NCBI RefSeq assembly: GCF_004010195.1
Contig: NC_057718.1
Location: 103,943,954-103,974,019, forward strand
Length of the DNA stretch: 30,066 nt
Direction of reading: 5' to 3'
From: Chiloscyllium plagiosum
Taxonomy: Eukaryota
Below are positions 141 to 28,267 of this stretch, piece after piece. Below the pieces are notes generated by a model. That model saw nothing but the letters and a program-made list of their open reading frames with translations. It had not been told where the DNA came from and did not search any database. A program made the position numbers and the translations under genes. Each line of letters opens with the position of its first letter. Within the stretch, counting starts at the first letter, position 1.

Positions 141-234
141 CTCCTGATGAGGGGCTTATGCTCGAAATGTCGACTCTCCTGCTCCTCGGATACTGCCTGA
201 CCGGCTGCACTTTTCCAGCACCACACTTTTTGAC
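141..234 (+). mobile_element. Penelope-like element (PLE) terminal fragment with minimal hammerhead motif
   Basis: CTGATGA-GGGGC-TTAT-GCTC-GAAATGTC at 144-171, followed by the same tail (GACTCTCCTGCTCCTCGGATACTGCCTGACC...TTTTCCAGCACC) as the GIY-YIG-bearing element at 6006-6579. Confidence 0.8.
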
Positions 235-6005: not shown

Positions 6006-6579
6006 CGGAGAAAGGGAGGACTGCAGATGCTGGAGATCGGAGTCAAAAAAGTGTGGTGCTGGAAAAGCACAGCTGGTCAGGCAGCATCCGAGGAGCAGGA
6101 GAGTCGATGTTTCAGGCATAAGCCCTTCATCGGGAATGTGGCGGGGAGGGGGGAAAGGGGCTGAGAGATAAATAGGTGGGTGGGGTGAAGGTGGGGAGAA
6201 GGTAGCTTGGAAGGCAATAGATGAATGCAGGTGGGAGGTAATTGTGATAGGTCAGAGTGGAGGGTGGAGTGGAGAGGTGGGAAGGAAAATGGACAGGTAG
6301 GACAATTCAAGGGGGCGATGCTGAGTTGGAGGGTTGAATCTGGCTTGAGGTGGGGGAAGGGGAGATGAGGAAACTGGTGACATCGACATTGATGCCGTGT
6401 GGTTGGAGGGTCCCAAGGTGGAAGATGAGGCGTTCTTCCTCCAGTTGTCGGGTGGCTTGGATTTGGAGGTGGATGAGGCCCAGGACTTGCATGTCCTTGG
6501 CGAAGTGGGAGGGGTGTTGAAGTCGTTGGCCATGGGGCGATGGGGTTGTTTGGTGCGTGTGTCCCAGAGATGTTCCCTG
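6006..6579 (-). mobile_element. Penelope-like retroelement, 5'-truncated (GIY-YIG C-terminus plus terminal repeat with decayed hammerhead)
   Basis: Minus-strand ..EHLWDTRTKQPHRPMANDFN..MQVLGLIHLQIQATRQLEEERLIFHLGTLQPHGIN matches the PLE endonuclease end. TSD CAGACCTG(G/A)TTCT at 5993-6005 and 6580-6592. Decayed core CCGATGA..GAAACATC at about 6103-6135. Confidence 0.88.
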
Positions 6580-6899
6580 CAGACCTGATTCTAACTCTGC
6601 AACTTAGTGATCAGTGCTCCAAAAGCACCTGGCTAGGACTATTAGATGTTTCTCAAGCTTCCTGGATGTACCTGAAACAGATGCTTATTCCTCTGTGTCT
6701 GTCAATGAAGGATTCCCTGCCCAAATTGACACATCTTCAGGGTTTTTCTGGGGTGGCTTTAGCAATAAACAAAAGGATGTTGTTTCTTTTTCTCTGCTTT
6801 TTTTGGCTTCGCTAAATGCCTGAAGACCACTACCAACTGTGGACCAGTGCCAACTACCACCCCCCCCCCTCTGTCTGTCTGTCTGTCTCTCTCTCAATC

Positions 6900-7680: not shown

Positions 7681-7859
7681 TCTGTTGATACCCATTCTAG
7701 GGGCATGCTCAGTTGGTAACACTGAAAAGTAATTTTTTGATTTGATGATTCAAGCTGGTAAAGCTGTCATGTGGAGATAACTAGCCTCTTCTGATTACCT
7801 TCATTTTCAAACCTGGTTATCCGACTCCAGAACAGGTTGCAAGGATTGTCATTTAACCA

Positions 7860-8067
7860 GGTCAGAAGTCACACGACACCAGGTTATGGTGCAACAGGTT
7901 TATTTGAAATCACAAGCTTTTGAAGCACTGCTCCATCGTCAAGTGTCCTGATGGAGGGCCAGCGCTCTAAAAGCCTGTGACTTTAAATAAACCTGTTGGA
8001 CTATAACCTGGTGTCAAGTGACTTCTGACCTTGTCCACCCCAGTCCAACCGCGGCACCGCCACATCA
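7860..8067. mobile_element. Palindromic (fold-back) PLE-derived insert, second family, with decayed hammerheads in both arms
   Basis: 7860-7943 is an imperfect reverse complement of 7947-8030. Degenerate TSD TGTCATTTAACCA (7847-7859) / TATCATCGAACCA (8068-8080). Confidence 0.8.
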
Positions 8068-14958: not shown

Positions 14959-15036
14959 TTTAATCAGCGAGTAGTAGGTGCTCGTGTCTTTATTTCGGGT
15001 GTTAGTTTGGTTGGGTAGACAAAGCTTGGGATAGCA

Positions 15037-16260
15037 ATGGCTCTTTTAGTTGCCAAAAACTTTCTGGATGTGGATGCGGAGACTTTGGAAGTTTTGCAAA
15101 AGTGAATAAGACCAAGCTGCAGGAATGAGCAGAGAAGCTGGGGTTGGACCTGCCTGCTTCTGTAAGGAAAGGAGAAATAATCACAGCAGTAGCTCAGCAT
15201 TTACACTTGCTGGAGAAACCATCAGAATCTATAGAGATGGCAATAATTCAGTTGCAAATGAAGCAGCCTGAGTCAGAAGCGAAAGATAAGGAAAGGGCAG
15301 CAGAAACGAAAGTTTGAGTTACAATTAAAAGCAGAAGAGAGAGAAAAAGAGCTTTTGAACTTCAAAATTGGTACTTTAAAAGAAAAGTCAGCATAAAAGA
15401 TTGGAGATAAAGGCTGAGAGTAGGCTCAGTGAGGAAGAGATTGAGGATGAGCAAGCCCCTGGTAGTCAGACGCCTCGTGAGAAACTGTTTAAGTATGTTC
15501 AAGCATTGCCTAAATTTGATGAGAAGGATGTGGAAGCCTTTTTCATCTCATTTGAAAAGGTGGATAAACAAATGCAGTAGCCACTGACAATGTGGGTTTT
15601 GATGATCCAAATGAAACTTGTCGTTAGGGCGATTGAGGTCTTCGCATCACTATCAGAGGAGGTATCTGGGGAGTAGGAGGCGGTGAAAAAGCCATTTTAA
15701 ATGCATATGAGCTTGTACCAGAAGCCTATAGACAAGTTTCAGGAATCTAAGGAGAGACCCTGGTCAAACGTATATTGAGTTTGAAAGGATGGAACAGATC
15801 CTAATTTCGATAGATGGAAAAGAACTTTAAAAATCGAGAAAACCTATGATGCCCTTAGAGAGGTAATTATTTTGGAGGAATTCAAACATTAACTGCCTGA
15901 AGTAGTGCGAACTCATGTGGAAGAGCAGAGAATTAAAACAGCAAGGTTAGCAGCTGAAGGGGCTGATGATTATGAGCTGGTCAATAAAACTTGGGTTGGC
16001 TTCCAGAGTCAATTTCAGTCCACTGAGGGATAGAAATTGGGGCAAAGAGAAATCCTCACATGGAAAGGAAATGGTAGATCTCAGTGAAGATCATAAGGAG
16101 AACTTACATCAGGGTAAAAAAGAAACCCTTGAGGGAGACAAAGAAGTTAAAAGCTCCGGTGTTTCCATTGTAATAAAGTGGGTCACATGAAATCATAGTG
16201 TGGGGGGCTAGGAGAAAGCCAGATGTTGGAAAACAGGACAAGCCTGGAAGTTTTGCTGGA
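15037..16260 (+). pseudogene. gag: gag with SCAN-like capsid domain and CCHC zinc knuckle (disrupted)
   Basis: LPKFDEKDVEAFFISFEKV.., YELVPEAYRQ.FRNL.., LREVIILEEF..LPEVVRTHVEEQ..AA..ADDY. Zinc knuckle CFHCNKVGHMKS*C at 16160-16201. Confidence 0.85.
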
Positions 16261-16388
16261 CTAGTAACAGAAAGCACAAGGGAAGTTAGACAACTGCCTC
16301 AGAGTGTACAGGATGATCAGAGGTAGATTAAAAATACACATGCAAGGGTAAAGTTTATTCACATAGGCCAGGAGCAGTAGGTTAAGAG

Positions 16389-16640
16389 GTTACAATATTA
16401 AAGGACACAGGATCCTTTCAGTCTGTGATGCTAAAGGATGAGGAGATATGTACTCCTGAGGGACTATTGCCAGAAAAGGTGCTGGTAACAGGAATTCATG
16501 GTGAGACAAAAAGTGCTCAGTTATGTAAAGTGAGGCAAGAGAACCTAGAGAATTTTGGAGAATTTGTGGTAGGAGTTCTGGACAAACTCTCAGCTCCAGG
16601 AATACAATTTGTCCTTGCAAATGATATAGCTGATTCAGCA
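16389..16640 (+). pseudogene. Retroviral-type aspartic protease remnant
   Basis: VTILKDTGSFQSV (DTG at 16404) and downstream GIQFVLANDI. Confidence 0.8.
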
Positions 16641-17314
16641 GTAGGCATGCTGCTGAAGAAGATGCAGACAACTGAAGAAATGAAGGACCTTTATCCAGGA
16701 ATTTTCCCTGGTTGTGTGGTCACAAGATCACAGAGGCACAAGCTGAAGCAAGAGAGCTCAAAAGGCACTGAAAAGGGAGCTGACATAGACTTATCCAAAA
16801 CTTGCTTTGATCAGATAAGTGACACAGAGAAGAGCAAATAGGTAAATGTGCAAGTATTTTTAGCTCTGCTAAGCTGATTAAATTACAACAGAAAGATGAG
16901 GAGTTAAAACAGGTTTATCAAAAGGCATTTACAAAGAAAAAGAAAGTGAATGCATCCCTCTGTGTCTTAATGAGGAAATGGAAACCATCACACAGTCAAG
17001 CAGTTGATAAATGGGCAGAGATTCATCAAATTGCTTTGCCTGTAGGGTATAAGAAGGTGGTGCTGTGAGTAGCACATGAGCTACCACTTAGAGGTCATTT
17101 AGGGGTAAGGAAAACATAGGCTAAAATACAAAGACATTTTTACTGGCCTGGACTACACAAGGATGTAGTTGAATTTTGCCAGATGTGTCACATATGTCAG
17201 CTAACAGGAAAACTGCAGGTAGTAATAAACCTGCATCTTTAATACCTATTCCAGCATTTCACAAGAGTCTTGATTGATGTTGTGGTTCTGTTCGCCGAAC
17301 TGGGAATTTGTGTT

Positions 17315-17354
17315 GCAGACGTTTCGTCCCCTGTCTAGGTGACATCCTCAGTGC
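17315..17354 (-). ncRNA. Minimal type I hammerhead ribozyme (PLE type)
   Basis: Minus strand: GCA-CUGAGGA-U-GUC A CCU AGAC AGG G GAC-GAA-ACGU-C-UGC. Stem I is GCA/UGC, stem II is present, and the palindromic ACGU precedes a GUC site. Confidence 0.8.
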
Positions 17355-17601
17355 TTGGGAGCCTCATGTGAAGCACTTCTGTGATGTTTCCTCCGGCATT
17401 TATAGTGATTTGTATCTGCCGCTTCCGGTTGTCAGTTCCAGCTGAACTACGAAAGCAACCACCCCAACACGCACAAAAGAAGTTGCATCAAGACACTATT
17501 CAATAGGGCCACAACACACTGCAGTACACCAGAACTGCAAAAAGAGGAAGAAGAACACCTATACAATGTATTCGCCAAAAACGGATACCCGCGCAACTTC
17601 A

Positions 17602-17718
17602 NNNNNNNNNNNNNNNNNNNNNNNNNNNNNNNNNNNNNNNNNNNNNNNNNNNNNNNNNNNNNNNNNNNNNNNNNNNNNNNNNNNNNNNNNNNNNNNNNNN
17701 NNNNNNNNNNNNNNNNNN
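17602..17718. other. Assembly gap (117 N)
   Basis: Run of N inside the nested Penelope element. Confidence 0.99.
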
Positions 17719-17880
17719 CATGGCACTCATCCACAGATTCAATCAATAAGCACATTGACCTGGACCCAATATACCGACCACTGCAACGGACAGCTGAAAC
17801 TGACAACTGGAAGCGGCAGATTCAAACCACTATAAATGCCGGAGGAAAGATCACAGAAGCGCTTCACAGGAGGCTCCCAA

Positions 17881-17921
17881 GCACTGAGGATGTCACCTAG
17901 ACAGGGGGACGAAACGTCTGC
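17881..17921 (+). ncRNA. Minimal type I hammerhead ribozyme (PLE type)
   Basis: GCA-CUGAGGA-U-GUC A CCU AGAC AGG GG GAC-GAA-ACGU-C-UGC. Predicted cleavage 3' of C17918. Confidence 0.8.
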
Positions 17922-19029
17922 AACACAAATTCCCAGCTCGGCGAACAGAACCACAACAACAAGCACCCAAGCTACAAATCTTCTCACAAACTTTGAAGTT
18001 TTGATTGATTGCATAGGTCCCCTACTTCAAACAAAAAGTGAGAATAAGTATTTTTTAACAATAATGGATAGATCAACTAGATTTCCAGAGGCAAACCCAT
18101 TACGCAACATCACAGCTAAAAGGATTGCAGAAGAATTACTTAAATGTTTTACTAGATATGGACTGCCAATAGAAATCCAGTCAGATCAAGGATCAAACTT
18201 CACATCCAAACTATTCACGGAGTTTATGGATAACTTGGGAATAAAGCAATTCAAATCTATTGTGTACCATCCAGAATGGAAGGGAGCACTAGAGAGATGG
18301 CATTAAACACTAAGGAACATGTTGAGGGCTTATGGTCAGGATTATCCAGATGATTGGGATAAGGGAATCCTGTTTGTACATTTTGCGATCAGAGATGCAC
18401 TGAATGAATCAATCAAATTCAGTCCAGTTGAATCAATTTTTGGGCATGAAGTAAGAGGACCATTAAAATTGATTAAGGAGAAATTAATAAGAATTCAGAG
18501 ACCATCCATTTGGACTATGTGTCAAATTTTATTGAACGATTAAATAGAGCTGGAGAGTTGGCTAGACAGCATTTAAAAATATCACACCATGCAATGAAAC
18601 AGAATGCAGATGAGAAATCACGAATTCACAATTTTGCAATTGGGGATAAGGTATTGGTGTTACTTCCAGTAACAGATGAGCCTTTAAAAGAAAGGTTTAG
18701 TGGGCCTTATGAAATTGAGAGGAAATTGAGTGAGGTGAACTACTTGATAAAGACTCCAGACAGGAAGAAATCTCACAGAGTATGTCATGTGAATATGCTC
18801 AAAAGGTATTTTGATAGGGAAGGAAAGCAAGAGGAGACGGTGTTAATGATTACAGCACAGAAGGAAGAACCAAGCTCAGAGGATTCTGAATTGGACATTC
18901 CTCAAATCAAATTGGTCAATGAGTAAGTTGTCAAAAATTGGGATAAATTATTGAGTTACCTGAAATGACCTGAAATGACCTGAAAGAGTTCTTACTATCA
19001 CATGTGGAGATATGTGGAAATAAACTGGG

Positions 19030-20282
19030 AAATACTAAGCTTATTGTGCATGATGTAGATTTGGGAGATGCTGTTCCAGTTAAGCAACATTCCTATAGGC
19101 ATAATCCTCTAAAGTTGGCACGGGTTCAGAAGGAAATAGAGAGCATGCTCCAAGATGGCATAATCGAAGTGAGTTACAGTGACTGGAGCTCACCCATAGT
19201 CATGGTGCCAAAGACAGGTGGTACCCAGTGTTCATTTGCAAAGTCAACGCTGTTACAAAGACTGATGCATATCCGATTCCATGGTTGGAGGACTGTGTTG
19301 AAAAAGTGGGACGAGCAACTTACATTTCCAATTTGGACTTGCTCAGAGGCAACTACCTTTGTCAGAAATAGCAAAGGCAATTTTGAATTTTGTAATGTCA
19401 AATGGACTGTATCAGTTCAAAGTCATGCCATTTGAATGAAAAATGCTCCAGCCACATTTCAGAGATTGACTAATAAGGTCATTGCCAGATTACCCAACTG
19501 TGTGGTATATATATTGATGAACTGGTGATTTTTAGTCACTCATGGAAGGAACATTAACAGTATTTATCAGACTTGTTCGATCGACTTTGGAAGGCAGGCT
19601 TAGTGATAAACCCAGATAAAAGTGAATTTGCCAAAGCCCAAGTCACCTTCCTGGGCCATGTTAGTGGACGAGGACAAATGACCCCCACGGGATGCAAAAA
19701 CGTAAGTAATTGGGGAATTTCCCACACCATCGACAATAAAAGCATTACTTCAGTTCCTGAGGTTGAGTGGACTTTACCCAAACGTTAGTGCCGAACTTTA
19801 GCAATGTGGCTGCTCCACTCACTGAATTGTTAAAAAAGGGCAAGAAGTTTCAGTGGACATCAGACTGTCAAAAGGCGTTTGACAGCCTAAAAACTGTGTT
19901 AACCACTGGCCCATTATTAGGCACACCAGATTACAAGGTCAACGATGTCAACGATGTGGGTGTCGGTGCAGTGCTCCTGCAGGACGATGACAAGGGGATA
20001 GAAAGACCCAGCGAGTATTTTTCCAGCAAGTTGAGCATTCATCAACAGAAATATTCAACAGTGGAGAAGGAAACTTTAAGCTTGGTGTTGGCATGATAAC
20101 ATTTCAGTGTTTATATTACCAGCAATGCATCTGAGACAATCATATACACTGATCAAGCCCATTGACATTTGTGGAGAAACACCAGCCTGTTTAGATGGAG
20201 CTTGTTGTGCCAGCCATTCAGTTTGACAATTGTTCAGGTGGCAGCTCGCAAAAACTTGATTGCCGATGCGTTATCAAGACTC
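19030..20282 (+). pseudogene. pol: Reverse transcriptase plus RNase H (disrupted), downstream of integrase
   Basis: SDWSSPIVMVPK; DAYPIP; FKVMPF*MKNAPATFQR; catalytic motif mutated to YIDE (19510-19521). RNase H: DVGVGAVLLQ..YFSSKL..YSTVEKE..YTD..NLIADALSR. Confidence 0.92.
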
Positions 20283-20453
20283 GAATGTGATACAGAAGCG
20301 TTCGGTAGTGGGTGTACCATGGCCTGAATTGGCATGTGGTTGTCCATGTTTGCATGTGTGTAGTTACTATAGTGTATATGTGTGTTTAGAATACTAACCG
20401 GGTTTTGAAGGGTTAAAAATGAAGCCATCTCTTGGTATTGATGGGTTTTTTTT

Positions 20454-20464
20454 AAGGGGGGAGG
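20454..20464 (+). promoter_or_regulatory. Polypurine tract preceded by a T-run
   Basis: TTTTTTTT-AAGGGGGGAGG immediately before the TG of the 3' LTR. Confidence 0.9.
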
Positions 20465-20997
20465 TGTCACAAAGCTCGTCCCTTTTTTTCTAAAAGCTGT
20501 TCCTTGGCTCAAGGAGACTCTGTCCTTGACTTTTATCAGAGGGGCAATAAACCAGGTCGGGCTCCAATCAGTCTGGTTTGATACAGAGATGGAAAGGATT
20601 TTGAGAGGCCTTTTGTTTATATGTAAACAGGTGAGATTTCAGGCCAAAGTGGTCATGTTTTAGAAGTCACCTGTATAATGGAAGGGGAGTGGTAGTTCAG
20701 TCTTGAACTGGTGAGGAGTTCAATAGTGAGCTGTATGAAAATTCTCTCTCTCTCTGCCATTCAACATCAACCTGTAAGCATGTGTTCCATTTATACTGGG
20801 TTTTAAAGGGAGCTTGTTTATTGGGATTGTTGTATATATTCGGAACAGCATCATTCAGTCTAGTTTAGATGGGTTGAGTTCTGTAGGGCTTCTTTATTCT
20901 GTGAGGAGAAAGTGAGGTCTGCAGATGCTGGAGATCAGAGATGGAAATGTGTTGCTGGAAAAGCGCAGCAGGTCGGGCAGCATCTAGGGAACAGGAG

Positions 20998-21033
20998 AAT
21001 CGACGTTTCGGGCATTAGCCCTTCTTCAGGATT
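20998..21033 (-). ncRNA. Minimal hammerhead ribozyme motif
   Basis: Minus strand: AAUC-CUGAAGA-A-GGGC UAAU GCCC-GAA-ACGU-C-GAUU, with a 4-bp stem I and 4-bp stem II. Confidence 0.75.
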
Positions 21034-21040
21034 TAGCCCT

Positions 21041-21072
21041 TCCTGAAGAAGGGCTAATGCCCGAAACGTCGA
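21041..21072 (+). ncRNA. Minimal hammerhead ribozyme motif
   Basis: UC-CUGAAGA-A-GGGC UAAU GCCC-GAA-ACGU-C-GA. Stem I is only 2 bp. Confidence 0.65.
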
Positions 21073-21326
21073 TTCTCCTGTTCACTAGATGCTGCCTGAC
21101 CTGCTGCGCTTTTCCAGCAACACATTTCCATCTTCTTTATTCTGTTCTTTGTGTTCAATTGTGTAATTTTGTGAATAAAGTTTTGTCTGTTTTAAAATCT
21201 AGTCGTCAACCGAGCTATCTTACTCCGGGTAATTTTCACTGCACACTTACCAAAACAAATTGCAAAGTTATGGTCTGGGGCTGCCTGATTAAGAATGTTT
21301 TGAGTGGCCTGGCCTCCTCCATAACA

Positions 21327-21813: not shown

Positions 21814-21962
21814 TAAGGTGTGTTAGCCCACCATGGTACAGGTTGATTAGAAATTACCTTAAACACTCCCATTGCTGCAGCAATACAGTCAGAGGAGCAA
21901 TAAAGCTTGTTTCACTGTGTCCCATCAGTGAATCCTGCTTCTGACCCTCTTATATTGGATTG

Positions 21963-22080
21963 GGTAAAAACAATGACTGCAGATGCTGGAAAACAGATTC
22001 TGGAGTCGTGGTGCTGGAAAAGCACAGCAGTTCTGATGCTGCCTGAACTGCTGTGCTTTTCCAGCACCACCAATCCAGAA
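21963..22080. mobile_element. Short palindromic PLE-derived insert lacking the hammerhead centre
   Basis: Inverted arms GGTGCTGGAAAAGCACAGCAGTTC / GAACTGCTGTGCTTTTCCAGCACC. Perfect 15-bp TSD TCTTATATTGGATTG at 21948-21962 and 22081-22095. Confidence 0.88.
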
Positions 22081-22132
22081 TCTTATATTGGATTGTCCAC
22101 AGCTCACAGAAGCTATTTTCATACCAGCTACA

Positions 22133-26272: not shown

Positions 26273-27489
26273 GTAATTCCTGCTTTGTGGAAATCACCAA
26301 AACTATTCCCTGAGCAACAAAAGCATCAATTTCTGGATTTCTCTGCACAGCCATTATGCTGATTAACAGGGAGAGAAGCTCTTTGAGCAGTAATGAAGGG
26401 TTTGCTGCTTTTTACCTGCAATTAGTGACCAACTCCCGAAATCAGGGAAATGAGCAGCTTTGAAATATATCTTCACCAAGAACATTAGCAGGATTTTAAT
26501 TCTGGGAAAAAAATGAGACTTTCTCCTATTTCACATTTAATGATATAATTGCTCAGCCAGCCAGCAGCCTCTCATTTCAGCTTGCCCTCCTCGCTCACCC
26601 AAACACTGGTGGAGATATCATTAATACAAATTCTTTTAGTATCATTGACATTGCATCACAAAAGGCCACTGTTTAGAAACATGGGAGTGATCATTGGTAC
26701 TGAGGGAGGCCATTGAACCCATCTTTCCTGGCTTAGCTGGTATCCAGCATAATCCCACCACTCAGGGTTTGCACCATAAACCCGCAGGTCGCAATACCTC
26801 AAGTTTAGATCCATTTTTACATGTAACAAAGGATTCTACCTTCACCACTCTTTCAGACATTAGTTCTGGAACTCCATTAGCCTCTGAAAATAATATACAC
26901 CCTTTCCCCAACAATCCTTACACCAATTCCTTTGAATCAATGTTCCATTCTTATTTATTGACCTTTCTGCTAATAGGAACATACTTTCCATTTTTTAAAC
27001 GCTATACTTTGATACCTAATGAAGTGTCAGATTTTGAGTTTGTTTTAAAGAACACTTATGAATAGCTGTCCCCTGACGGTGAGGCTGCAGAGCACCTTGC
27101 TCTGAGTTGTACAGGTTCCAACCTTCTGGCAGAGTCCTTTCAGGTCACAGATACATCCCAGAGGGTTCATCGATATTTTCACTAAAACTCTTTCTCTGCA
27201 TCTCCTTATTCTCTCTCCCTTCGGCCTCTTATAACCTCATGCATCACAATCCAACCTCCCCTCAGCCTCTTCTGTTCTGATATAAACAGCCCCATCCATA
27301 ATCCTGCTGCAGGAATACTCCCGAAACGACAACCTATCTGCATTACTGTGTTGTGGACCAGACCAAGCCCCCTCAAAACATATCAAGGAGATAGCCTAGA
27401 CCCCACATCTTTTCTTATTTTAAAAGTAAGTGTAAGGGATGGCAATGCAAATGCAATTAGATTTCATTAAGTATCAAAGTATATCATTT

Positions 27490-27590
27490 TAAAAAAAGGA
27501 AAGTATGTTCCTATTAGCAGAGGGGTCAATAACTAAGAATGGAGCATCGATTCAAAGGAACTGGTGTAAGGGTTAGATGGGAAAGGGTGT
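27490..27590 (+). mobile_element. Short CR1 fragment inserted in the LTR
   Basis: TATGTTCCTATTAGCAGAGGGGTCAATAACTAAG..GCATCGATTCAAAGG, resembling the CR1 SxTRGHRFK region. Confidence 0.5.
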
Positions 27591-28267
27591 GTATTATTAG
27601 ACTGGTCAGACTACCAGGTTAGAAGCTAAACATACTTTATTCACACATTATAATTACAATACAAACAAAAAAAAGAATTGGGATAACTTAACTCTAACAG
27701 AAAAGCTTAATGGAATATAAATCAATTAACTACAAAACAACAACAGTTCCAATGTAGTAACATCCCATAAACACACCCTTGGAAAAGGGGAATTCAGTAA
27801 ATTAGATTGGCTCACATGTGATTCTAGCAGCAGGACGAGAACCCCAGCTTTTAGCTGTAACAGAGAGAGACAGAGAGAGAGAAAGAGATGTAGCACCTTT
27901 CTCCATCCCACCAGCCACTAAAAGCTAAAACTAAAATCCTGGTTCTGTGGGAGCTTTACCCCACCCATTCAGGCTGCTTCTATTATTCCAAATTTAATAG
28001 AAACCCAAGGCCTCACAAGCTGTTTACATTATTGGCTTTGAGCAGATCACTCTATAATCTCTGTCTCAGCCTTTCTTCACAAAAAAAACAAAATAGGGTC
28101 ATAGTGTCATCACAACATTTCCACTTAAACAAAAGGAAACTTCAATATACAAAGATAGCTTCATTTTAAAAGCCTTTCGCTCGACTTACACCATTTGTTC
28201 ACTACAATACATACAAATTGCATTTACTCTAAGCTATGCAAATATTCACTACTACAGTCCTTTTCAG

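Follow-up and report, generated by a model that had tools for sequence, protein, structure and literature searches.

Hammerhead ribozymes in Penelope-like elements

Pairs of minimal hammerhead ribozymes (min-HHRs) on opposite strands, 100-700 bp apart, have been described in the pLTRs of metazoan Penelope-like elements (PLEs), among them Poseidon and Neptune elements of fishes (Cervera and De la Pena 2014, PMC4209133); the monomer is reported to have no activity and the dimer low activity. Dimer cleavage of min-HHRs is also attributed to Lunse et al. in a review (PMC6765202). The insertion units of EN+ PLEs contain an inverted, 5'-truncated copy and a tail of 30-40 bp (Craig et al. 2021, PMC8557442), and it has been suggested in general terms by the same authors that endonuclease cleavage shapes the inverted copies. 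The Poseidon element of the lizard Anolis carolinensis, PAc, encodes a protein that cleaves and extends both target strands in vitro and prefers ATT (Frangieh et al. 2024, PMC11167929). According to that report, two internal start sites of reverse transcription bound the PAc tail, uncut RNA is the main substrate, and the hammerhead cleaves only with the protein, its cleavage being dispensable for insertion in vitro. A type I hammerhead is also found in the PLE-derived sequence of non-LTR retrozymes, which are described as present in the single chondrichthyan sampled (Li et al. 2026, bioRxiv 10.64898/2026.07.22.740005).

The locus analysed here is most probably explained as a copy, truncated at its 5' end, of an abundant Penelope family of the Poseidon type, inserted in a decayed Gypsy element and carrying in its pLTR the known minimal type I hammerheads, predicted to be inert at this site. 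The original prediction had assigned its motifs to this known class, with activity reported for dimers, and the assignment stands.

The insertion and its Gypsy host

The window is the whole stretch of DNA that was analysed, with a length of 30,066 nucleotides. As had been predicted, a Penelope element is nested at 17279-17996 (718 nt). It lies inside, and interrupts, a Gypsy integrase, with a target-site duplication (TSD) on both sides, for which the predicted identity of 12/13 was confirmed. The features are as follows.

17266..17278, + strand: left TSD, 13 bp, includes ATT, inside the Gypsy integrase coding sequence
17279..17444, - strand: inverted 5'-truncated pLTR copy, tail-less, reverse complement of 17791-17957
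17315..17354, - strand: minimal type I hammerhead motif, 4-G form, C17 = 17318
17442..17600, + strand: 53-codon open fragment, thumb region of the Penelope ORF, 92% to P0001 aa 207-259
17602..17718, no strand: assembly gap, 117 N; 120 nt between the ORF pieces versus 145 codons (435 nt) in an intact element
17721..17900, + strand: ORF C-terminus, where the GIY-YIG region ends; 17721-17897 is 88% to P0001 aa 405-463
17881..17921, + strand: minimal type I hammerhead motif, 5-G form, predicted cut 3' of C17918
17890..17892, + strand: likely ORF start codon, AUG (A9 of the core, extra U, G10.1)
17958..17996, + strand: 39-nt AC-rich tail, on the right copy alone, between two preferred family ends
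17997..18009, + strand: right TSD, 12/13 identical to 17266-17278
17998..20096, + strand: decayed Gypsy-type LTR retrotransposon, the host, with many stops and frameshifts; its remainder lies upstream of 17278
20889-21145 (element 20903-21131): inverted Neptune-type insertion, from a second family; TSD perfect over 14 bp; arms differ at 2/93
21948-22095 (element 21963-22080): third inverted insertion, with a Neptune-like 3' end, perfect 15-bp TSD, truncated, no hammerhead left

Within the host, the order is integrase core, integrase C-terminus and RNase H (PF00665, E 2.8e-12; PF22938, E 9.4e-13; PF17919, E 2.1e-18). The integrase is thus upstream of RT/RNase H, the unusual order of the Gmr1 group. 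Overall, this heavily decayed element covers 16386-20096. Since the Penelope insertion is nested in it, the insertion is the younger of the two.

The arms of the insertion, 17279-17444 and 17791-17957, show 9 differences in 167 columns, and the 3 nt at 17442-17444, common to the open fragment and the inverted arm, are likely a microhomology. Given that 120 nt separate ORF pieces expected to be 435 nt apart, either the gap is drawn too short or the copy has an internal deletion. With an N gap in mid-element, it is the TSD and the integrase frame continuing across that carry the reading as a single insertion.

The gap also raises the question of whether the inverted arrangement is an artefact, in which contigs ending in a high-copy repeat were joined across it. 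The gap is in mid-element and 315 nt short of the intact expectation, and the family is of very high copy, with 16,099 contigs in run X3 and 46,305 in run X1. These counts were taken on 17719-18060; X3 and X1 are DNA, and run X21 is RNA (fragmented polyA cDNA). An artefactual join is nonetheless very improbable, given that the flanks form a 12/13 TSD, that integrase coding sequence runs from the left flank into the right, and that the identical architecture is repeated twice more in the window, free of gaps, at 20903-21131 and 21963-22080.

Identity of the element

On homology, the element is assigned to a very abundant Poseidon-type Penelope family as a 5'-truncated copy. With the 52-residue open fragment as query, 8 homologs were found among 9 candidates, every one from a carpet shark and the top one at 92% identity. 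The bamboo-shark protein P0001 matches the two ORF pieces at 92% and 88% identity, and shows a single ORF with RT followed by a C-terminal GIY-YIG (PF00078 for the former, a GIY-YIG-type motif by eye for the latter). The locus itself retains the thumb and the C-terminal end of this ORF and nothing else of it; Pfam matched 0 of the 2 Penelope fragments. An open RT fragment had been predicted. The frame is indeed open, but 17442-17600 encodes the non-catalytic thumb, 3' of the YVDD motif of P0001, rather than the RT catalytic domain. Lacking the RT catalytic motifs, the copy cannot be autonomous.

A Zn-finger-like linker between RT and endonuclease is reported in Neptune and Nematis (PMC8557442). 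By eye, a CxxC linker between thumb and endonuclease is absent from P0001 and present in P0009, from the second Penelope-like family of the window. By the linker criterion of that paper, the absence from P0001 points to the Penelope/Poseidon clade.

Anatomy and occurrence of the hammerhead motifs

The inverted pair of hammerhead motifs was found with the coordinates and anatomy originally predicted for 17315-17354 (-) and 17881-17921 (+). Read from the sequence, the minimal type I motifs run from the core to C17 at 17884-17918 (+) and 17351-17318 (-). They are 41 and 40 nt long, and the minus copy is identical to the plus copy except for one G fewer in a run of G. In the plus motif, a 3-bp stem I is formed by GCA at 17881-17883 and UGC directly after C17918. 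The core CUGAGGA (17884-17890) is followed by the extra U17891, and then by stem II, with six positions, G17892-C17910 as the outer pair and a single A.G mismatch. GAA, the palindromic ACGU and C17 (17918) complete the motif, with GUC as the cleavage triplet. Neither copy has a mismatch to the core CUGANGA...GAAA...UH. The topology is that of type I, with a short helix I (3 bp) and a helix II of more than 4 bp (six positions, one mismatch), and the extra base between 9 and 10.1 (U17891), the G10.1-C11.1 pair and a palindromic 15.1-16.1 without a stable helix III are all present. The motif is in the pLTR, where, as judged by the homologs P0001 and P0008, it overlaps both the end and the start of the ORF; the stop codon (17898-17900) is within stem-loop II.

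A descriptor scan of both strands of the window finds 8 candidate motifs at two or fewer mismatches. Three motifs combine a perfect core with a stem I of at least 3 bp, versus a mean of 0.0 (maximum 0) in 40 Markov-1 resamples, and with two mismatches allowed the resamples average 0.075 motifs. The motifs therefore occur far more often than by chance, and the scan recovers both copies with perfect cores. The plus and minus motifs derive from a single duplication and are therefore counted as one event. A covariance-model search had been proposed as a check. Rfam cmscan of the whole window returned 9 matches at E<=10, with no hammerhead among them.

Support for the structure as a class comes from metagenomes, where a core-only pattern that leaves stem II unspecified past G10.1 was found at 27 loci in 13 families. 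The first pair of stem II is formed in 13/13 families, and pairs 2-4 are formed in 31 of 39 cases versus a shuffle mean of 18.3, with 0 of 100,000 shuffles as high. The third pair of stem I, which the pattern does not constrain, is formed in 7 of the 13. A PLE ORF was found by tblastn at 1 of the 27 loci, and the pattern has 0 loci in viral contigs. On one metagenome contig (L022, 883-2596), a Poseidon-like ORF (29% to P0001, 444 aa) is followed by a minimal hammerhead.

The shark family shows conservation, and covariation is not among its listed variants. Of the 74 variant rows, 40 are listed, and five of these lie within the motif: at N7, at the mismatch, in the loop, at C11.1 (a change to U that keeps the wobble) and at H17. 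None of the five is compensatory. Invariant core or stem I bases are hit by 0 of the same 40 rows of 74, which is not significant (P = 0.07). For six sequences, the isolated motif folds no better than its shuffles (z -0.36 to +0.87), so minimum free energy (MFE) lends the structure no support.

Predicted activity at the locus

Folding models predict that the two motifs are likely inert at this locus. Since they are on opposite strands, no single RNA holds two sense copies and no dimer can form within one RNA. The dimer cleavage that had been put forward is therefore disfavoured here, the copies being mutually antisense. In read-through RNA, the arms are predicted to form a duplex of -314 to -321 kcal/mol, and the probability of stem II is 0.0 on either strand. 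In outward RNAs, stem II has a probability of 0.004-0.019, and a competing hairpin (0.6-0.97) buries G12 and the cut site. The stability of a cleavage-competent dimer (-15.9 and -15.7 kcal/mol) falls short of that of two monomers (-21.2 and -20.4) by about 5 kcal/mol. Mg2+, tertiary contacts and help from protein are left out of account by nearest-neighbour folding, and given that the lizard ribozyme does cleave with its protein, the predicted inertness is not proof.

It was also considered that the motifs are active here, with outward pLTR transcripts of one hammerhead each being cut in trans, together with family transcripts or the protein of the element. Both cores are still perfect at the locus, pLTRs typically hold promoters (PMC6765202), and family RNA is present, with 489 X21 reads on 17719-18060. 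Of these reads, 78% continue into unlike sequence, likely as host transcripts through scattered copies; run X22 yielded 0 reads. Moreover, the cut-site C17918 reads U in 71 of 192 X21 reads versus 3.0% (X3) and 8.8% (X1) of DNA word depth, the pattern expected if cleavable RNA were depleted. However, unrelated sites beyond the motif are equally enriched in RNA (17820 in 55 of 122 reads versus 2.9%, 17738 in 24 of 57 versus 1.3%), so that a bias of locus or subfamily explains the excess, which was rejected as a sign of cleavage. Run X21 has no site with many molecule ends and its depth is continuous across 17918, a weak test in a fragmented polyA library. Given also the competing hairpin in the outward RNAs and the low rates published for min-HHRs even as dimers (PMC4209133), activity at this locus is improbable.

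A TATA-like hexamer at 17831-17836 is a doubtful promoter candidate; it is polymorphic, and 17833 differs in 32% of X3 depth.

Ends of the family and a proposed mechanism of insertion

Both ends of the insertion are preferred ends of the family. Among the rows listed, the loose ends of X3 pile up at 17958 (141 contigs) and 17997 (137), and those of X21 at 17960 (32), 17995 (25) and 17997 (37); neither 17958 nor 17997 is among the X1 rows listed, and the loose-end table holds 518 further rows. Read or contig depth steps down at both family ends in X3, X1 and X21. The left arm ends at the inner of the two. The insertion consists of an inverted 5'-truncated copy (166-nt arm) with a tail at one end (39 nt, for an expected 30-40 bp). 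The family ends match the two reverse-transcription start sites of the lizard Poseidon.

A mechanism can be proposed that would extend the two-strand priming of the lizard in vitro system to the shark element. The element protein would nick each target strand, with about 13 bp between the nicks, and from each of them reverse transcription would be primed at one of two internal starts, equivalent to 17996 and 17957. One cDNA would extend into the thumb region and the other would halt after 166 nt, and the two would then be joined head to head at the microhomology of 17442-17444. Because both cDNAs would cross the cut site, the template RNA would be uncut there, or re-ligated. In the active parent element, the motif may have weak ribozyme activity that depends on a partner or on the protein of the element. 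A literature search, including the available text of PMC11167929, found no link between two-strand priming and inverted copies.

An inverted copy could instead arise from a single RNA or cDNA, by fold-back, template switching or twin priming of the L1 type, with the arm differences due to decay after insertion. The 3-nt microhomology would fit such an origin, as would the inverted match, which reaches 17271, and the last bases of the TSD, which resemble element sequence past the left end. It is, however, left unexplained why the left end coincides exactly with a preferred family end. L1 twin priming gives two parts free of overlap, whereas the inverted part here duplicates the 3' end. In addition, 3 of the 9 arm differences (17797, 17822 and 17849) are at sites where both alleles are apparently common in family DNA. 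These discordant alleles hint at two template RNAs, a hint weakened by possible reference bias. A single-template origin is thus rather doubtful, and priming on both strands is the preferred reading.

A likely start codon in the ribozyme core

The likely start codon at 17890-17892 is part of the ribozyme core itself. In the 4-G form (minus copy), the frame of the AUG agrees with the N-terminus of P0008, whereas in the 5-G form (right copy) the extra G shifts the AUG out of that frame. The one-base deletion at the G run is seen in 84 contigs of X3, 114 of X1 and 100 of 199 reads of X21. Used as query, the N-terminal region of P0008 matched P0008 itself and nothing else. Among the best 150 distant homologs, 24 extend back to the N-terminal region. 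The spacing M-x6-KRL is present in 4 of these 24 (in other protein clusters, at 42-51% identity), M-x6-KRQ in two more, and a looser pattern in 9. From the protein alone, it is inferred that a hammerhead may stand at the start of those distant homologs. The lizard element being laid out alike, the start codon in the core extends a published fact. For a role of the PLE hammerhead in start-codon use or translation, the literature search found none in the texts available to it, an RNA-virus paper being the only match.

It is possible, though speculative and on balance unlikely, that the Poseidon hammerhead serves as a start-codon switch and that the inverted insertions are the footprints of a dimeric enzyme priming two RNAs. 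If so, the U of the AUG of the ORF would be the extra base that characterises the minimal core, and the stop codon of the ORF would fall 8 nt past the AUG, in the next repeat. With the help of protein, cleavage would sever the start codon from the mRNA and the RT start sites from the template, giving negative feedback, and the whole protein would be encoded by uncut tandem RNA or a re-ligated circle alone. The dimeric enzyme would prime two different RNA molecules, one per target strand.

Age, and other copies in the window

The element had been described as young, which is not supported by the 9/167 differences between the arms, the mismatch in the TSD, or the comparison of the right copy with the family majority, from which it differs at at least five positions in 278 nt (17756, 17786, 17808, 17961 and 17969), or about 2%. 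At the rate of 7e-10 mutations per site per generation reported for a related shark (PMC10587355), this divergence would correspond to tens of millions of generations, a figure that RT errors and template variety would inflate.

Nor is the claim supported that the two motifs are the best-formed candidates in the window, given that a motif of the second family at 21029-21002 (-) folds better in short contexts. Its hammerhead-like fold is the MFE structure at 6-nt flanks, with a mean core unpaired value of 0.89, and of 0.94 at 15-nt flanks. The motifs at 17884-17918 and 17351-17318 reach 0.62-0.65 and 0.48-0.50 and lose stem II to the competing hairpin. At 30-nt flanks, the fold is lost by all three. 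The 20889-21145 insertion, which carries hammerhead motifs at 21043-21070 (+) and 21029-21002 (-) and, on one arm alone, a tail about 36 nt long, looks younger than the copy at 17279-17996.

Further traces of the second family are scattered through the window. Decayed minimal hammerhead motifs are found at 144-171 (+), 6133-6106 (-) and 28328-28301 (-), its endonuclease end is at 6307-6603 (-) with 67% identity to P0009, and several copies start just 5' of the core in local alignments. Other long inverted pairs lie at 26889-27598 (111 nt, 88%) and 7856-8034 (86 nt, 81%).

Comparison with described systems

The features of the locus are all published already, and its arrangement was described in 2014. 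Taken singly it matters little, the element class being known and dead copies of it very numerous. On sequence grounds, every feature expected of a metazoan PLE min-HHR and of an inverted, tailed PLE insertion unit appears to be present. Like the min-HHRs of PMC4209133, the motifs are of type I, with a short helix I, a long helix II, the extra base between 9 and 10.1, G10.1-C11.1, a palindromic remnant of helix III and an opposite-strand pair. Helix I is 3 bp here, versus 4-5 in Schistosoma and 2 in D. virilis (PMC4209133). They differ in that the 3' strand of stem II can pair with bases of the cleavage site, giving the competing hairpin. Sharks are not named for min-HHRs in the available text of PMC4209133, and a literature search for Penelope, shark and hammerhead ribozyme together found nothing beyond a review; in either case, supplements may list shark motifs.

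The insertion resembles the EN+ PLE units of PMC8557442 in the inverted repeats that flank it, in the tail at one end and in being hard for short-read assembly. There is no substantive difference, the locus being without a partial-tandem upstream pLTR. The non-LTR retrozymes described by Li et al. are non-coding head-to-tail tandems, whereas this locus is inverted and has ORF remnants; with no long direct repeat in 15000-21000, identity with a retrozyme was rejected.

A shark family of very high copy would permit statistical tests of cleaved RNA as template and of inverted insertions made from two templates. The value of the locus is as a clean genomic match to PAc, the sole Poseidon studied biochemically, with two RT starts, a tail, and a ribozyme that contains the start codon. 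In both, the ORF opens where stem II starts and the cut is about 25-26 nt past the start codon, two internal RT starts bound an AC-rich tail, ATT is in the target, and RNA-seq has no ends at the cut site, which in the shark (X21) is a weak test (PMC11167929). The shark family ends are at about +67 and +106 from the AUG, and the PAc stem-loop is at 111-118 (PMC11167929). Unlike PAc, the shark copy is truncated and without the RT catalytic motifs.
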